Source: Mustelus asterias (lineage: Eukaryota). Taken from it: a stretch of DNA of 64,000 nt. The DNA lies in assembly GCF_964213995.1 (NCBI RefSeq), contig NW_027590123.1:682001-746000 (forward strand), given 5' to 3'. The position numbers and the translations under genes are program-made. This document shows, piece after piece, positions 4,869 through 41,835 of the stretch (the stretch's first letter is position 1; each line of letters starts with the position of its first letter). Under the pieces are notes generated by a model. The model was not told the DNA's origin. It worked only from the letters and a program-made list of their open reading frames with translations, and did no database searches.

Positions 4869-5051
4869 TTGCTGAGAGAGCCCTATTTAGCCAACACCCC
4901 ACTGACAACCCGATGAATCCTGGTGACCCAGAGATGCAGAGTGTCCACAGCGCCTGTTCCGCCCTCAAGACCTCCAAAGAGACGCTTGGTCACTTGGCCA
5001 GGAAACACCAAGACTGCTGAATGAACGATCGGAGATCCAGCAGCTGGTAAG

Positions 5052-5375
5052 GGCGCAGAGTGGCACAAGGATCCAGGTTCGAGGACGGCCTTGGGTGACT
5101 GTCTGTGTGGAGTTTGCACAGTCTCGCCATGTCTGTGTGTGTTTCCTCCGGGTGCTGTGGTTTCGTTCCAAAATACAAAGATGTGCAGGTTAAGTGGATT
5201 GGCCATGCTGAATTGCCATCCGTGTCCCAAGCTCTCTAGGTTAGGTCGAATGGCCATGGAAACTGAGTGGGGTTACTGAAAATGGCGGGGTTGAAGTGGG
5301 CCTGTTTAAGGTGCTGAGTCAGTACAGACTCATTAGGCTGAATGGCTTCCTTCTGCACTGTAGGGATTCTATGGT
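5052..5375 (+). mobile_element. HE1-like V-SINE with CR1-type 3' tail
   Basis: V-core plus tail GAATGGCTTCCTTCTGCACTGTAGGGATTCTATG. Confidence 0.8.
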
Positions 5376-7619
5376 TCTCAGCATTAAGGTCAAGGCGTTT
5401 CGGAACCTGCAGGAGCAGCACAACTCGAGAACAAAACGTAGCTCTGCAGCCTAACCTCCATAAAAAAAAGACTTGAAGAATCGATGCTGCGTGGAGAAAG
5501 AGCAGGAGATCCAGCAGTTAACTGGCAACTGTGATAGCCAGGGTTTCTTTACCGCAGTTGAGATCACCTGCAGCCGAAGAACCCAAGGTTCCACTCCATT
5601 GTTGGCCAAGAAGGGGGAGATGTTCATCAAGAAAATGGAAGCAGTCAGCACCCGTTGGAAGGGCCTCCTTAACACAGATTCTATCTTCAACGTGCGTGTC
5701 CTTGACTCCATTCCACAACATGCTATCCATGACCATCTCAGCACAAACATAACCGGAACAAGGTAGAAAAGGCCATTCAACAGCTAAAGAACAACAAGCC
5801 ATCTTGAACAGATGAAGTCCCTGTTAAAGAATTAGAACATAGCGGAAAAGCACTATTGTTGTAAATACACGACCTGACTTCCATTCCCCGGAAGGAAGAA
5901 AACGTGCCAGGAGATCTCAAGTACACCACAATCATGACCATCTTCAAGAAAGGTGACAAGTCCGACTTCTGTAACTACAGAGGAATTTCCCTGCTATTAG
6001 CCACAGGGAAGATCATCATAAGAATCTTCCTTAATCGTCTTCTCCCTGTGGCTGCAGCGCTCCTCCCAGAGACCTGACGTGGATTCCGGCCACTCAGGTG
6101 TACAATGGATATGATCTTCACTGTGCGGCATCTGCAGATGACAGCGTCAACCTTTGTATGTGGCTTTCTGTAACCCCACAAAGCCCTTTCACACTTTTAA
6201 TCGCCAGGGATTATGGAAAATTATCCTCCACCTTGACTCCTCCAAAGGTTTTTCCCCAACATCCATCTGCTCCACGATGACATGGAAGCTGCGATCCTGA
6301 TCAACGGAACCACCACAGACCCAATTCATGTTCAGATGGGTTCAAAAAAGGCTGCTTCATCACACTAACGCTCTTCTTATTCTTGCTGCAATGCTCGATC
6401 TGACTCTCAGCCAGATCCCTGCTGGAATTGAGTTGAACAACAGAACAACTGTGTCTGCTGTTCGTTTTTCCAGTTTACTACTGTCAGGAAAACAGCGGTA
6501 ATGATCAATATTTGCATTGTTCAATAGTAGAAGTAAGGAATAGTTTTAAGTGGGTTTAATTTAGTGTTTCTGTGTAAGAGGAAAAAACCTCTAACTGGAT
6601 TCATGATGGACAAGGGTGTTTGTATCTGTGGGATTTTTGGTCAGTTCAAACTGTGTTTCTCCTGTGCTTCGAGAGGGTAAAACATAACAAGTAAACAAGC
6701 TGGGAGAAGTAAAAGTCGTTGCTGACAAACCAGGTGCACCTTTCGGGTGTCATTTTTAGATAACTTAACAACACTTGCTTTTGGAAAGCTAGAGAGCGAA
6801 CAGCTCTCTCAGTTTTGCTGGATAAAAAGCCATACAATGGAGTAATTGTTAATGAATGATGGAAAGCGTCAGTTTTTCTGAGATTGAAAATACTCATGTG
6901 ACAATCATCTGGAGGGAGTTTGAGGAGAAAACCACTAAAGATTGGTTGATTGGCATAGGCCATTTAATTTCAGAGTAGGGTGTTACCTTTGAAAACAGTA
7001 CGCATTTGTGAAGCTGAGAGGGGAGTAAAAGAGTATTGTACTATAATCAAACGTTTAATGTTTAAGAAATGCTTTTTCTGTTAAAAAATTATTAGCAGTC
7101 CAATGACTCTGTTCCTCATGTTATCTAAGAAAAAAGAAAAACGTAAAGTCCTGTAAGCTTCCAACCAGTAGTAGTAACATAAGATGGGGTTGTGACACTT
7201 CTGAACACTTTATATTCAGCTGTTATAATCCGGGCCAGAAGCGCCAAGGTGTTTTATGAAGTCAGCCCAGAGCAGAAGTTTTGCACCTTGCATTTGGCAC
7301 GGATAAGCATAAAATATTTCGCTCGAGGTAGGATCCAAATGTCCCTCACGGGACCTTTTACCAAACAAAGTTTACTTAAGTACACAGTTAACAGATAATA
7401 CAGAAATCAGCATAACTTTTACCAATTACAAAAAAAAAACAACCATGATCTTGGATAAGCCTCAACAGCTAAATATACTGTCCCAAACTAAACAGCACCC
7501 ACAACCATATATCCTGTTCAAGGCTGAGCAAATTAAGCAAGTATGCTCACACGATGCAGCATTTTGCAGTTTCGTAACACCTGCTGCGAATTAGTCCTGT
7601 GGAAATGGAATTGAGAGAG

Positions 7620-13082: not shown

Positions 13083-13155
13083 GGGCCAGTGGCGCAATGG
13101 ATAATGAGTCTGACTACGGATCAGAAGATTCCAAGTTCGACTCCTGCTTGGCTCG
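13083..13155 (+). tRNA. tRNA-Arg(ACG) variant, probably a pseudogene
   Basis: GGGCCAGTGGCGCAATGGATAATGAGTCTGACTACGGATCAGAAG...GGCTCG. About 5 substitutions relative to the perfect copy at 24498-24570, including stem positions. Confidence 0.85.
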
Positions 13156-13283: not shown

Positions 13284-13348
13284 TGTTTCGGCCCAGTTTC
13301 AAACCGGGGACTTTTCGTGTGTTGGGCGAACGTGAGAATCACCACACT
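13284..13348 (-). pseudogene. tRNA-Val(AAC) pseudogene, 5' end lost
   Basis: Reverse complement CACGTTCGCCCAACACACGAAAAGTCCCCGGTTTGAAACTGGGCCGAAACA. Confidence 0.75.
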
Positions 13349-25889: not shown

Positions 25890-25962
25890 GTCCCAGTAAC
25901 CTAACGCGTAAGGCACTGGCTTCCTAAACCAGGGAGCATGTGTTCGAGTCACTTCTGGGATG
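25890..25962 (+). pseudogene. tRNA-Arg(CCT) pseudogene
   Basis: GTCCCAGTAACCTAACGCGTAAGGCACTGGCTTCCTAAACCAGGGAGCATGTGTTCGAGTCACTTCTGGGATG, with A-box and stem mutations. Confidence 0.8.
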
Positions 25963-27429: not shown

Positions 27430-28168
27430 TTTAGTTTTATTTATTATTGTCACATGTATTAGTATGCTGTGAAAAGCATTTTTACTTGCGCGCTATACAG
27501 ACAAAGCGTACTGTTCATAGAGAAGGAAACGGGAGTGCAGAATGTGGTATTGCAGTCACTGTCAGGGTGTAGACAAAGATCAACTTAATGCAAGGTAATG
27601 GCCATTCAAAAGTATGATGGCTGCAGGGAAGAAGCTGTTCTTGAGTCGGCTAGCACGTGACCTCAGACTTCTGTATCTTTGTCTCGAAGGAAGAAGGTGG
27701 AAGAGAGAATGTCCGGGTGCGTGGGGTCCTTAACAATGCTGGCTGCTTTGCCGAGGCAGCAGGAAGCGTAGACAGAATCAATGAATGGGAGGCTGGTTTG
27801 AGTGATGGATTGGACTACATTCACGACCCTTTGTAGTTTATTGCGGTCTTGGGCAGAGCAGGAGCCATACCAAGCTGTGATACAATTAGAAAGAGTGTTT
27901 TCTATGGTGCACCTGTAAATCTTGGTGACAGTCGTAGCTGACATGCCAAATTTCCTAAGTCTTCTGAGAAAGTAGAGGCGTTGATGGGCTTTCTTCACTA
28001 TAGTGTCGGCATGGGAGGCCAGGACAGGTTGTTGGTGATCTGGAGACCTAAAAACCTGAAGCTCTCGACACTTTCTACTTCGTCCCGTTTGATGGAGACA
28101 GGGGCATGTTCTCCTCTACGCTTTCTGAAGTCAATGACAATCTCCGTTTTGTTGACATTGAGGGAGAG
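27430..28168 (-). mobile_element. Rex1/L2-group LINE 3' fragment
   Basis: LNVNKTEIVIDFRK...FRFLG..ITNNLSW...KKAHQRLYFLRRLRKFGMS...YRCTIE. Confidence 0.8.
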
Positions 28169-28264
28169 ATGACAGAAATGAAAAAATACTTTGCGGTTCA
28201 CGGCCTCAGGGTGAGGTCCGCACTAAATCAGAAAATGCGTACACCACAGAATAAGGCCATGCTA

Positions 28265-28885
28265 AGGAATGGCAATATAATTCCAAGTCAGGATGGTGAG
28301 TGACTTGGAGGAGAACTTACAGATGGTGGTGTTCCCATGTGTCTACTACCCTTGTCCTTCTGGATGGAAGTGGTCGTGGGTTTCGAAGGTGCTGTCTAAG
28401 GATCGTTGGTAAATTGCTGCTCTGTATCTTTTAGATAATACACATCGCTGCTCCTGAGCGTCGGTTGTGGCGGGATTGAATGCTTGAGGATGTGGTGCCA
28501 ATCAAGCGGGCTGCTTTGTCCTGGATGATGTCAATCTTCTTGTGTGTTGTTGGAGCTGCACCCATCCAGGCGAGGTGGGAATATTCCATCACGCTCCTGA
28601 CTTGTGCCTTGTAGATGGTGGACAGGCTCTGGGGAGTCAGGCGGTGAGTTATTCGCCACAGTATTCCTGGCCTCTGACCTGCTCTTGTAGCCATTGTGTT
28701 TATGTGGCGAGTCCAATTGAGTATCTGGTCAATGGTAACCGTAAGGATGTTAACAGTGGGGGATTCAGTGATGGAAAATCTATTGACTGTCAAGAGGCGG
28801 TGGTTAGATTTTCTCTTATTGGTGATGGACATTGTCTGGCATTTGTGTGGCGCGAATGTTACATGCCACTTGTCAGCCCAAAGTC
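28265..28885 (-). mobile_element. CR1/L2-group (Crack-like) LINE 3' fragment
   Basis: WADKWHVTFAPHKCQ...IYKAQVRSVMEYS. Older copies at about 53280-54810 and 57690-58420. Confidence 0.8.
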
Positions 28886-29213
28886 TAATATAATGCAGCA
28901 CACTGCGAACTTTCAAAATCTGAAATAAAAACAGAAAATACTGGGTTATGTCAGTATTTCTGGAAGTACCTGTGGAGCGAGAATCAGAACTAACGCTTCC
29001 CGTCCAGCTGTCACGTGGCAGGCGCAGACATGATGGGTGTCCGCGCCTGCCATGTGGGTGTCCGAGTGGGCTCTATCCGTGCTGTAAAATTCTGTGCCTT
29101 TATGACTCTTTTTCGGAGCCAGTCAGCAGAAAGCCATCCCGCCGTTTGCACCTTAAACAAATCAAAATATCTCCTTTTGAACACAATATTTTGGTCAAAA
29201 CGAAACAAATGAG

Positions 29214-29303
29214 GGGCTCGTCCGGGATTTGAACCCGGCACCTCTCGCATGCTAATGGGGCGAGATACCCTAAGCGAGAATCATACCCCTAGACCAACGA
29301 GCC
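29214..29303 (-). tRNA. tRNA-Pro(AGG) with an 18-nt intron at canonical 37/38
   Basis: Exon 1 (29303-29268) GGCTCGTTGGTCTAGGGGTATGATTCTCGCTTAGGG; intron (29267-29250) TATCTCGCCCCATTAGCA; exon 2 (29249-29214) TGCGAGAGGTGCCGGGTTCAAATCCCGGACGAGCCC. One substitution (C48G) versus the canonical sequence. Confidence 0.9.
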
Positions 29304-29872
29304 TGCACGTTAGCAGTCAGCAAAATAAAACTTGTTTAACTTTCTAAAAGGCAGTTCTGACACCTCGAGTGAAAGCCGAAATTGATTCAATAACGCACCG
29401 CATCAGCATTTGTGGACTTTAAGCACCAGCAAAATATCCGTCCAATATTGTTACCTCGACTGTTTGCAACTGGGGGCTTTTGTTTATAAAGTACACATGT
29501 TACAGTCAATAATTTTAACCCAGCGACTTCAACATGTGACAACTCTGAGTCCGCATTTGATATTTGATCACTTTTGAAAGGTGTTGTCTGTCAGACAGTT
29601 AAAATATCTGGAACATTTAAAGTACAGATTGATGACATGGTTCACCTGGGAGATCTGCTGGTTTGTGTGAAAGGATCGGGGAGCGATTGGACTTGATGTG
29701 ATAGTAATATGAATAAAAACATGTCAAATTTCCCAACAGTGACAATCAGTAACCTCAGTGAGAGAAAACACTCAGACGGGGCTGATTGTCACGTTCACTA
29801 TGAGTAAATTTTCTCTGAAGTTTAACCCCATGTGTTGTCCTGACAATGAATCATTGATTATCGACCTGTGCC

Positions 29873-29911
29873 AGATTTTGTCTGAGGCCCGCGGGAGCCT
29901 CGTGTACTGTG
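29873..29911 (-). other. 23-RSS of TCR V segment
   Basis: Heptamer CACAGTA (29911-29905), 23-nt spacer, nonamer ACAAAATCT (29881-29873). Confidence 0.92.
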
Positions 29912-30388
29912 GCTCTCAGTGCACAGTAATACTCGGCGCTGTCTGTCACCTTCAAATCTTTCATGGGCAAGTGAAAAGAATTTTGTTTCAGGTTGAGATT
30001 CCCGCTGCAGTATAAGAAACCTGGAGCCGTTTCGGTACATTGGCGGCTCTGAGCAGTCAATGAGGAGCTCGGTGTGTATACTGGCGATACCAGAACAGGT
30101 AATGTTGCATCGTTAAACTCGATCCCGAGTAACTGCAGGGTATTGCTGAATCTTCACCCTCTGCTGCTTGAACTCCTTGTTTTGACTGGGACACTGAGTC
30201 ACCGTTACTGATGTCTGAAAATAGGCAACAGACACGCAGTGGGTTAGAAGGAGTAACAACAATGGAATAATCCCCTCGAGATGGAAATGGGGAATGAATC
30301 TGGTGACTGGCAGATGTCACGCAGAAGTTCAAAATGACAAACCTGCAATCAGGACAATAACCAGAGTGAGACAGAGTTTCACCCCCAT
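29912..30388 (-). pseudogene. TCR alpha/delta V pseudogene (single frameshift)
   Basis: Leader 30388-30343 (MGVKLCLTLVIVLIA|GT) and intact acceptor TTTTCAG|. V exon 30214-29912 reads DISNGDSVSQSKQGVQAAEGEDSAIPCSYSG..YLFWYRQYTHRAPH*, then shifts frame to ..NSFHLPMKDLKVTDSAEYYCALR. Confidence 0.93.
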
Positions 30389-30634
30389 GGTTCGAGACTG
30401 AACACCAGAAACAGAGAGACTGATCACTGTCTGAATCAGATCTGCAATTGGAGATGTTGAAACAGTCAGGGGGATGCTATGAGGTCCAAGGGGACTCCAT
30501 CTCTCCGCCCATCTTTACATCTTCAAACAGACAATTCCTTTAGAAAGGGGTTGTGAACTTTCATAAGTGATCAGAGAGCGCTCTCCCGTGGACAGCACAG
30601 CCGCATATTGGCAACCTGAAAAGACTGACACTTA

Positions 30635-30860
30635 TAGAGATCATAGAATCATAGAACCCCTAAAGAACAGAAGGAGGCCATTCGGCCCAGAGAGTCTGTA
30701 CCGACCACAATTCCACCGAGGCCCTATTCCGGTAACCGCACACTTAATCTCCCTGACACTAAGGGTCAATTTAGCCTGGCCAATCCACCTAATCCGCACA
30801 TCGTTGGACTGTTGGAGGAAACCACAGCACCCGAGGAAGCCCAGCAGACATGCGGAGAAC
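30635..30860 (-). mobile_element. HE1-like SINE, partial
   Basis: Reverse complement of the SINE tail and part of the core. Confidence 0.75.
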
Positions 30861-31599
30861 AGATACACACACGGTCACGTGGAAAGACCAACACGAATAA
30901 GGATATATAACCATATAGATATATGCCCAGACAGTGACATCAATTCTAACGTCCCTCGTTATAAATCCAGAATTATTCTGCAGATTTCTGACACCTATTA
31001 GTTTGCGTTGCTAACCATGATAATGCATGAATACCTCCACCTCCGTGTTCACTGGAAGCCTCGGATACTGCACAGAATCAACACAGAGGCAAGTAAACTA
31101 AGTGATAGATTCCCAAACCGATCGACTCAAACATAGAGTCATAAAGACATGGAGGCCCTCCGGCCCAACTTGTCCATGCCGCCCTTTTTTGTTTAAACCC
31201 CTCAGCTAATCCCAATTGCCCGCATTTGGCCCATATCCCTCTATACCCTTCGTACCCATATACTATCTAAATGCTTTTTAAAAGATAAACTTGTAACGGC
31301 ATCTACTAATACTTCTGGCAGCTTGTTCCACGAGACACACGGACAATCACTCAGAAAGATAACCAAGCAGATAGCTGGTGATGGTTTCGTAAAACTCCTC
31401 TGAACTTTTTCTCATGCATTAACATATTTCTTAAGATAAGGAGAGAAATAGTGTACACAATATTCGAGATATATCCAATGCCCTCGCCAATGCCCAATTT
31501 TCAGGTCTATCCTTGTGTCGCCAGCAGATATAGCATCCATATCTTCACTGCCTTCATCACTGCAGAAATCATCCCACTTTAATGCTTTTTGACAAATTC

Positions 31600-39391: not shown

Positions 39392-41835
39392 TTTAACTTT
39401 CCAAATATTGATTGGAACCTTTGTAGGTCAAATAGTTTGGATGGGACACTTTTTGTGCAGTGTGTGCAGGAGGGTTTCCTGACACAATATGTGGATAGGC
39501 CGACAAGGGGTGAGGCCACATTGGATTTGGTACTGGGAAATGAACCGGGCCAAGTGTTAGATTTGGTTGTGGGAGAGAACTTTGGAGACAGTGACCACAA
39601 TTCGGTGTCTTTTGTTATTGCAATGGAGAGGGATAGGGCCGGACGGCAGGGCAAGGCTTACAATTGGGGGAGAGGTAATTATGATGCGATTAGGCAAGAA
39701 TTAGGGGGCATAAGATGGGAACAGAAACTGTCAGGGAAAGGCACTGATGAAAAGTGGAACTTTTTCAAGGAACAAATACTGGGTGTCCTTGATAGGTATG
39801 TCCCTGTCAGGCAGGGAGGAAATGGCCGAGTGAGGGAACCGTGGTTCACAAAAGAGGTGGAATGTCTTGTGAAAAGGAAGAGGGAAGCTTATGTAGGGAT
39901 GAGGAAACAAGGTTCAGATGGCTCGACTGAGGGTTACAAGTTAGCAAGGAACGAGCTGAAAAAGGGGCTGAGGAGAGCTAGGAGGGGACATGAGAAGTCC
40001 TTGGCGGGTCGGATCAAGGAAAACCCCAAGGCTTTTTACTCTTATGTGAGGAATAAAAGAATGACCAGGGTGAGGTTAGGGCCGGTCAAGGACAGTGGTG
40101 GGAACTTGTGTATGGAATCAGTAGAGATAGGCGAGGTGATGAATGAATACTTTTCTTCAGTGTTCACCAAGGAGAGGGGCCATGTTTTTGAGGAAGAGAA
40201 GGTGTTACAGGCTAATAGGCTGGAGGAAATAGATGTTCGGAGGGAGGATGTATTGGCAGTTTTGAATAAACTGAAGGTCGATAAGTCCCCTGGGCCTGAT
40301 GAAATGTATCCTAGGATTCTTTGGGAGGCGAGGGATGAGATTGCAGAGCCTTTGGCTTTGATCTTTGGGTCCTCGCTGTCCACGGGGATGGTGCCAGAGG
40401 ACTGGAGAGTGGCAAATGTTGTTCCTCTGTTTAAAAAAGGGAATAGAAATGACCCTGGTAATTATAGACCGGTTAGTCTGACTTCGGTGGTTGGTAAATT
40501 GATGGAAAAGGTCCTTAGGGATGGGATTTACGACCATTTAGAAAGATGCGGATTAATCCGGGATAGTCAGCACGGATTTGTGAAGGGCAAATCGTGCCTC
40601 ACAAATTTGATAGAATTTTTTGAGGAGGTAACTAGGTGTGTTGATGAAGGTAGGGCGGTTGATGTCATATACATGGATTTTAGTAAGGCGTTTGATAAGG
40701 TCCCCCATGGTCGGCTTATGATGAAAGTAAGGAGGTGTGGGATAGAGGGAAAGTTGGCCGATTGGATAGGTAACTGGCTGTCTGATCGAAGACAGAGGGT
40801 GGTGGTGGATGGAAAATTTTCGGACTGGAGGCAGGTTGCTAGCGGAGTGCCGCAGGGATCGGTGCTTGGTCCTCTGCTCTTTGTGATTTTTATTAATGAC
40901 TTAGAGGAGGGGGCTGAAGGGTGGATCAGTAAATTTGCTGATGACACCAAGATTGGTGGAGTAGTGGATGAGGTGGAGGGGTGTTGTAGGCTGCAAAGAG
41001 ACATAGATAGGATGCAAAGCTGGGCTGAAAAATGGCAAATGGAGTTTAACCCTGATAAATGTGAGGTGATTCATTTTGGTAGGACTAATTTAAATGTGGA
41101 TTACAGGGTCAAAGGTAGGGTTCTGAAGACTGTGGAGGAACAGAGAGATCTTGGGGTCCATATCCACAGATCTCTAAAGGTTGCCACTCAAGTGGATAGA
41201 GCTGTGAAGAAGGCATATAGTGTGTTAGCTTTTATTAACAGGGGGTTGGAGTTTAAGAGCCGTGGGGTTATGCTGCAACTATGCAGGATCTTGGTGAGAC
41301 CGCATTTGGAATATTGCGTGCAGTTCTGGTCACCTCACTATAAGAAGGATGTGGAAGCGCTGGAAAGAGTGCAGAGGAGATTTACCAGGATGCTGCCTGG
41401 TTTGGAGTGTCGGTCTTATGAGGAAAGGTTGAGGGAGCTGGGGCTGTTCTCTCTGGAGCGGAGGAGATTGAGGGGAGACTTAATAGAGGTTTATAAAATG
41501 ATGAAGGGGATAGATCGAGTGAACGTTCAAAGACTATTTCCTCGGGTGGATGGAGCTATTACGAGGGGGCATAACTATAGGGTTCATGGTGGGAGATATA
41601 GGAAGGATATCAGAGGTAGGTTCTTCACGCAGAGAGTGGTTGGGGTGTGGAATGGACTGCCTGCAGTGATAGTGGAGTCAGACACTTTAGGAACATTTAA
41701 GCGGTTATTGGATAGGCACATGGAGCACACCAGGATGGTAGGGAGTGGGATAGCTTGATCTTGGTTTCAGATGAAGGTCGGCACAACATCGTGGGCCGAA
41801 GGGCCTGTTCTGTGCTGTACTGTTCTATGTTCTAT
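39392..41835 (+). mobile_element. Young 5'-truncated CR1 LINE with uninterrupted ORF2 (C-terminal APE half + RT)
   Basis: The frame is open from FNFPNIDW (about 39392) through ORF 39437..41758, with [45 protein letters not shown] and FADD. It ends in a 3' UTR with a TGTTCTA tandem tail. Confidence 0.97.

Follow-up and report, generated by a model that had tools for sequence, protein, structure and literature searches.

Putative canonical-type introns in tRNA-Pro and tRNA-Arg(UCG) gene families of the shark Mustelus asterias

Is an 18-nt insert in the anticodon loop of a shark tRNA-Pro(AGG) gene an intron, although proline tRNAs are not among the tRNAs known to be spliced in mammals? This question was raised by a stretch of 64,000 nt of Mustelus asterias DNA (assembly GCF_964213995.1, contig NW_027590123.1, positions 682,001 to 746,000), referred to below as the window; the contig measures 2.5 Mb and the whole genome 3.68 Gb. 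Four spliced tRNA types, with 28 intron-containing genes in total, are described for human, and the animal spliced tRNAs that are named are Tyr, Ile-UAU, Leu-CAA and Arg-UCU (PMC12168002; this and the other papers are cited for their accessible text). In vertebrate tRNA introns generally, TSEN cuts both splice sites and RTCB joins the exons (PMC10275265, PMC4090602).

A reading of the window from its sequence alone had described the gene as a nearly canonical tRNA-Pro(AGG) with an 18-nt insert at 37/38 and two exons of 36 nt. This description was borne out, both by our own reading of the minus strand at 29214-29303 (exon 1 of 36 nt ending in AGG-G37, the 18-nt insert, and exon 2 of 36 nt) and by ARAGORN with intron search, which reported a tRNA-Pro(agg) with an 18-nt intron at 29214-29303(-). 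The gene was not picked up by the default, intron-blind ARAGORN run or by the Rfam gathering scan. Stems, A box, B box and T-run terminator all read as intact, the A box at 29285..29296 being delimited by its generally accepted definition. The features of the locus are the following:

29268..29303, minus strand: tRNA-Pro exon 1, positions 1-37, identical to the corresponding part of intact Pro-AGG genes without intron elsewhere in the genome
29285..29296, minus strand: A box of the internal Pol III promoter, intact (sequence reading)
29269..29271, minus strand: anticodon AGG (sequence reading and ARAGORN)
29250..29267, minus strand: putative 18-nt intron at the canonical position 37/38 (ARAGORN and pairing analysis)
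29214..29249, minus strand: tRNA-Pro exon 2, positions 38-73 (sequence reading and ARAGORN)
29239, minus strand: private C48G change, which breaks the G15-C48 tertiary pair (paralogue comparison and the 15:48 rule of PMC9023262)
29225..29235, minus strand: B box, intact (sequence reading)
29197..29200, minus strand: T4 run 14-17 nt 3' of the gene, likely the Pol III terminator (sequence reading)
29304..29320, minus strand: inner 5' flank, hypervariable between paralogues (bin -17..+2 has 1.7 changes per site, and the other upstream bins have 0.1-0.85)
27714..31082, no strand assigned: portion of the segmentally duplicated block that bears the gene (89-98% identity to paralogous loci)

Other tRNA-like sequences are found in the same window. 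An intact-looking intronless Arg-ACG gene lies at 24498-24570(-), a decayed inverted copy at 13083-13155(+) and a decayed Arg-CCT-like gene at 25890-25962(+). With these Arg-type genes in addition to the Pro gene, the window belongs to a tRNA cluster. Positions 13284-17352 contain five mostly decayed copies derived from tRNA-Val, in tandem duplicates of a unit of about 1.2 kb; one of the five, at 13898-13970(-), has a TAG anticodon on a Val body and was miscalled as Leu. Lastly, an open frame of 788 codons at 39392-41755(+) resembles ORF2 of a CR1-type LINE, as judged by eye from its translation.

The sequence-only reading had proposed a search for other intron-bearing Pro genes in the genome, and such genes are indeed present. 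An exact exon-core pattern that allowed inserts of 8-35 nt matched 143 insert-bearing Pro loci genome-wide with anticodons AGG, TGG or CGG, a count that may contain haplotype duplicates on small contigs. The reversed pattern gave 0 matches, and the number of loci is therefore far beyond chance. Among the 100 matches listed of these 143, we counted by hand 42 AGG, 46 TGG and 12 CGG anticodons, and the inserts among the matches listed were 13-18 nt long and widely different in sequence. The insert is placed between positions 37 and 38, with a possible slide of one base in some copies that leaves the mature sequence unchanged. The exons of many copies are identical to those of intact intronless genes, and removal of the insert restores a normal cloverleaf. 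The exact exon-core pattern also matched 9 intronless Pro loci, which became 27 when three mismatches were allowed. About 8 of the 27 are intact genes, located on four large contigs, and the others are mostly decayed copies attached to SINE or LINE pieces.

The copies of the window type are 89-98% identical to each other across the whole 1-3.3 kb that was fetched. Since the identity extends over all of the fetched flank, the true duplicated unit must be longer, and since the flanks are shared throughout, these copies have spread by DNA duplication. On an 85-Mb contig, two AGG genes that stand alone and carry an insert (L043 and L044) have unique flanks and unrelated introns, which suggests, at the level of sequence, that the intron feature predates the recent amplification. 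This pair combines a C in the D-loop with the AGG anticodon, and its spliced products, like those of the CGG-18 lineage with a change at D-loop position 16, would be distinguishable from the tRNAs of the intact intronless genes. Recent switches of the anticodon from TGG to CGG were seen in tandem duplicates that kept the TGG-type intron (L066/L067 and L109).

Eukaryotic tRNA introns range from 6 to 133 nt (PMC4090602), and the inserts of 13-18 nt in Pro genes and of 16-22 nt in Arg-TCG genes fall inside this range. In the described A-I/BHL arrangement, a pyrimidine at position 32 pairs with the third-last base of the intron, a purine, and this A-I pair is extended by an anticodon helix (PMC10275265); the structure found in the shark inserts matches this description. 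In the window gene, the G at intron position -3 (29252) stands opposite U32 (29273) as a G-U wobble, and positions -4 to -6 continue the helix with the pairs U33-A, A34-U and G35-U, so that the earlier suggestion of a pairing between the antepenultimate intron base and U32 holds. We then considered 53 distinct Pro types of anticodon plus intron (the underlying 87 records include a few loci twice). Position -3 is a purine in 48/53 types, position -4 is A in 52/53 and position -6 is a pyrimidine in 53/53. Position -5 tracks base 34, being T with A34 in 20/22 types, A or G with U34 in 22/24 and G with C34 in 4/7; two of the C34 misses are recent TGG-to-CGG switches. In the canonical register 199/212 pairs are formed, as compared to 99 +/- 7 in 5000 shuffles (maximum 127) and 76-114 in slid registers, but it should be noted that the 53 types represent about six intron lineages, so that the shuffle test overstates independence and the independent events are few. 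The three large 18-nt lineages form different pairs at position 34, namely A-U, U-A and C-G.

One CGG lineage has U at -3 (5/53 types), which breaks the A-I pair. This lineage (L070, L071, L074, L077, L090 and L107) also has a changed D-loop base 16 and an anticodon helix of 5 bp, and it is a natural test of what TSEN requires. With regard to folding, the minimum-energy structure of the window subfamily, at -36.8 kcal/mol, has the intron paired to the D-loop, and the splice-ready fold (-28.7) lies 8 kcal/mol higher, whereas in TGG-18 and CGG-18 examples the splice-ready fold is within 1.5 kcal/mol of the minimum.

Proline is not the only isotype concerned. A pattern for Arg-NCG matched 136 loci, and by hand count among the 100 listed an insert was present in 46/47 TCG genes and in 0/53 ACG genes; the single Arg-CCG match was intronless. 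The Arg-TCG inserts among the matches listed measure 16-22 nt and are located at 37/38, and -3 is a G opposite C32 in 15/15 distinct Arg-TCG introns from loci L158-L197. Contigs C26, C72, C75, C85, C102, C103, C130, C141 and C155 of the genome (G000) carry members of this second intron-bearing class. Some of the Arg-TCG inserts contain an expanding (GAT)n repeat. For Leu-NAG, a single insert was found among the 100 matches listed of 187. The gene concerned, a Leu-AAG gene (G000:C71:13736022-13736059), has 13 nt duplicated in tandem across its anticodon loop, the kind of event that could seed an intron. The idea that introns mark all tRNAs with G37 was dismissed, because 99/100 of the listed Leu-NAG genes and the lone Arg-CCG gene are intronless. 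In 400 kb of DNA from the tRNA clusters, selected around known matches, no insert was found in genes for Asp, Glu, Gly, Lys, Ser, Thr or Asn, SINE heads being excluded from this count and the intron calls labelled His and Thr being decayed Arg and Pro copies. Judging from the genome sequence, we therefore regard Pro AGG, UGG and CGG together with Arg-UCG as four further intron-bearing anticodons in a vertebrate. The earlier proposal of an additional class of tRNAs spliced by TSEN and RTCB in this lineage is thus supported at the family level, where we infer splicing, and has widened from one anticodon to all three of Pro plus Arg-TCG.

We examined 27 paralogues of the window gene that had been chosen by their upstream flank alone, leaving out L135, from which the gene is absent, and two duplicate rows. 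Their pairwise difference is 0.019 for the exons, 0.204 for the intron, and 0.058 and 0.064 for the flanks, the upstream figure being lowered by the ranking of this set on upstream similarity. Parsimony counts, which gene conversion can inflate, amount to 0.21 changes per site for the exons, 1.39 for the intron and 0.42/0.54 for the flanks, rising to 1.7 immediately 5' of the gene; the difference between exons and flanks has a p-value of 5e-4 in these counts. Active tRNA genes are known to combine a conserved mature sequence with a hypervariable inner 5' flank, and their intron variation tracks the flank variation (PMC6130373). The excess of change in the intron and the inner 5' flank of the shark genes matches this signature of active transcription. 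Moreover, the exon constraint argues for splicing, since a tRNA that retained the insert could not serve in translation. No RNA run was listed in a search of sequencing runs. Four sequencing runs matched to the upstream flank contained paralogue-like flank copies in four organisms from three studies, which has no bearing on the intron.

The window copy itself may be a weakened one. Position 48 is C in 29/29 other loci from the DNA search and also in 26/26 other distinct gene-bearing loci picked by flank alone, and only the window copy has G. This copy thereby lacks the G15-C48 tertiary pair; positions 15 and 48 form G-C or A-U in nearly all families surveyed (PMC9023262). The doubt raised by the sequence-only reading about the 15-48 pair and the function of this copy is supported. 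The nearest paralogues, with 99-100% flank identity, keep the C; therefore, the C48G change is very recent. Judging from these flanks, the window copy would be a very recent duplicate or an allele. The private C48G change likely weakens it, and the chances that it still yields tRNA seem about even.

Retro-inserted copies provide traces of the RNA. Several insert-bearing copies with a few leader bases are fused to a SINE head or a LINE piece (L040, L041, L042, L046 and L099/L108). From their sequence, these are best read as reverse-transcribed unspliced precursors, and this arrangement suggests that the unspliced precursor was transcribed. No retrocopies of the window's own subfamily were found on large chromosomes among 38 matches. 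A trace of splicing may be present in L031, whose similarity to the intron-bearing TGG subfamily extends from 4 nt on the 5' side to 43 nt on the 3' side and ends there. L031 carries the 43-nt trailer of this subfamily (37/43 identical) and precisely lacks the insert. It is joined to a 5'-truncated LINE piece with an RVT_1 (reverse transcriptase) domain. Although this is one ambiguous case, L031 is most easily explained as derived from a spliced precursor with unprocessed ends, and as such it suggests splicing in vivo. An inverted, partial twin of 96% identity lies at a distance of 326 bp, and its similarity sets in precisely at position 38 of the tRNA, which could reflect a cleaved 3' exon or a stop of reverse transcription at a modified G37 (the chimera and its twin are at L198:4332-4685 and 5012-5399). 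On the other hand, L031 is surrounded by retrocopies of intronless genes from its vicinity, and the same structure could have arisen without splicing if a template switch had led onto an intronless tRNA. A target-site duplication was looked for at L031 and not found. As a separate observation, 16/19 decayed intronless Pro copies (L031, L032 and L140-L157) share a contig with an intact gene and lie within about 9 Mb of it, and most decayed intronless copies consist of a tRNA with a leader of 4-5 nt and a short trailer, to which a SINE or LINE is joined. This hints at a local capture of nascent pre-tRNA during retro-insertion.

Taken together, the Pro and Arg-TCG inserts are very probably tRNA introns of the canonical type that are removed by TSEN and RTCB. 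Pol III would transcribe such genes from the intact A and B boxes to the T-run, yielding a precursor whose leader and trailer are short. In this precursor the anticodon loop would pair with the end of the intron, leaving a 3-nt bulge, and the A-I helix would set the 3' splice site. TSEN would then cut at 37/38 and at the other site, and RTCB would ligate the exons into the same tRNA that is made from the intronless genes. The copies would have spread via segmental duplication inside tRNA clusters. A search for the catalytic domain of TSEN (PF01974) gave one exon match over the cut-off, covering profile positions 1-32 of 85 with an E-value of 3.8e-4.

It may be argued that the insert-bearing copies are, or once were, transcribed but are poorly spliced or mostly dead, and that they travel as passengers of the duplications while the intronless genes make the working tRNA-Pro. 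All three Pro anticodons, AGG, TGG and CGG, are represented among the approximately 8 intact intronless genes, which are accompanied by many retrocopies, so that the cell can do without the spliced genes. Furthermore, many neighbouring genes in the tRNA clusters are decayed, stem-breaking changes are frequent among the insert-bearing copies, and the window subfamily misfolds in silico. Nevertheless, we consider this explanation unlikely, as the exons in the recent subfamily are about three times less variable than the flanks, the A-I pairing is preserved by different base pairs across lineages, and intronless Arg-TCG genes make up only 1/47 of the matches listed.

Even less probable is an origin as a tRNA-derived, SINE-like repeat, or else as an accidental insertion or duplication amplified by retrotransposition, with no intron involved. 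Such repeats are abundant in sharks (PMC8450103), some of the copies are fused to SINE or LINE pieces, and the motif TCTCGC occurs both in the window insert and in the 5' anticodon stem. A local duplication of the anticodon stem was nonetheless rejected as the origin of the insert because the other lineages show no such likeness. Most copies share kilobases of flank, as expected for DNA duplication, and retro-inserted chimeras are only a minority; a dispersed distribution with unrelated flanks, a SINE body and a LINE-type tail was not what we found. In addition, other subfamilies have unrelated inserts at the same site with the pairing kept, and the background rate of inserts is as low as 1/100 for Leu-NAG and 0/53 for Arg-ACG among the matches listed. 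These observations largely refute a repeat origin. An artefact of sequencing or assembly might be suspected because most copies are on small contigs, and C48G, which concerns one base only, could be an error. For the insert, this suspicion is refuted by 143 loci with dozens of different inserts, including L043 and L044 on the 85-Mb contig, and its probability is negligible. We therefore favour splicing of the family by TSEN and RTCB.

It is still an open question what tRNA introns are retained for (PMC12168002). In the shark, an identical mature tRNA would be encoded side by side by spliced and unspliced genes. These pairs offer a natural test of three possibilities, namely that introns guide modification, that they determine expression or that they are neutral, and a traceable case of intron gain or loss. 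The many diverged introns likewise represent a natural mutational scan of the A-I helix recognised by TSEN, in which one lineage lacks the A-I pair. Animals are generally credited with a nearly fixed set of spliced tRNAs, which four further anticodons would double. Annotation that is blind to introns misses such genes. More speculatively, sharks may possess two parallel sets of genes for Pro and Arg-CGA codons, namely a few intronless housekeeping genes on large chromosomes and well over 100 spliced, clustered genes for a stage of high demand, such as the oocyte. This scenario is doubtful, though not far-fetched; if true, TSEN activity would gate the supply of Pro and Arg tRNAs, and early jawed vertebrates would have had eight spliced anticodons, half of which were lost toward mammals.

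The yeast Pro-UGG tRNA has an intron, and the human annotation includes a single Pro-AGG gene, of low confidence, that carries an insert. A canonical-type intron is known as a kind, and what is new is its presence in isotypes that are not reported as spliced in mammals. In literature searches, no paper was found to name a vertebrate intron-bearing Pro or Arg-UCG tRNA, although GtRNAdb or bioRxiv supplements may already catalogue them, and the accessible parts of PMC4981973, PMC8450103, PMC12530127 and 10.1101/2025.10.17.683076 contain nothing on isotypes. The closest precedent is the Squalomix preprint on sharks (10.1101/2025.06.08.657570), which likewise describes abundant, clustered tRNA loci, many of them intron-containing. 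Its accessible text differs from our analysis in that it names no isotypes and gives no structural or selection evidence, but its Fig. 3A or supplements may list them. Introns occur in these anticodons somewhere among the eukaryotes, since UCG, AGG and UGG come soon after the four classic anticodons on the axis of a supplement figure in PMC12168002, whose column order is not guaranteed; this figure pools all kingdoms and is silent on vertebrates, and the shark inserts can be compared with it by anticodon only. L031 and the SINE-fused copies resemble U6/L1 and tRNA/L1 chimeras, in which a small Pol III RNA is found at the 5' end of a truncated retroelement (10.1101/2025.02.02.635956), but the primate tRNA/L1 chimeras are mostly antisense halves, whereas those of the shark are full-length sense precursors with leader and trailer. 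The most direct comparison is with Tyr-GUA, Ile-UAU, Arg-UCU and Leu-CAA of human and mouse, which differ from the shark families in that the latter concern Pro AGG/UGG/CGG and Arg-UCG, comprise more than 140 Pro loci as compared to 28 human genes, and are ones for which we infer splicing. Both nevertheless have a short intron between N37 and N38, an A-I pair of Y32 with a purine and an anticodon helix, and both have introns that vary among family members; as in the shark, Arg-UCU and Leu-CAA mix intron-bearing and intronless genes (PMC10275265, PMC12168002).
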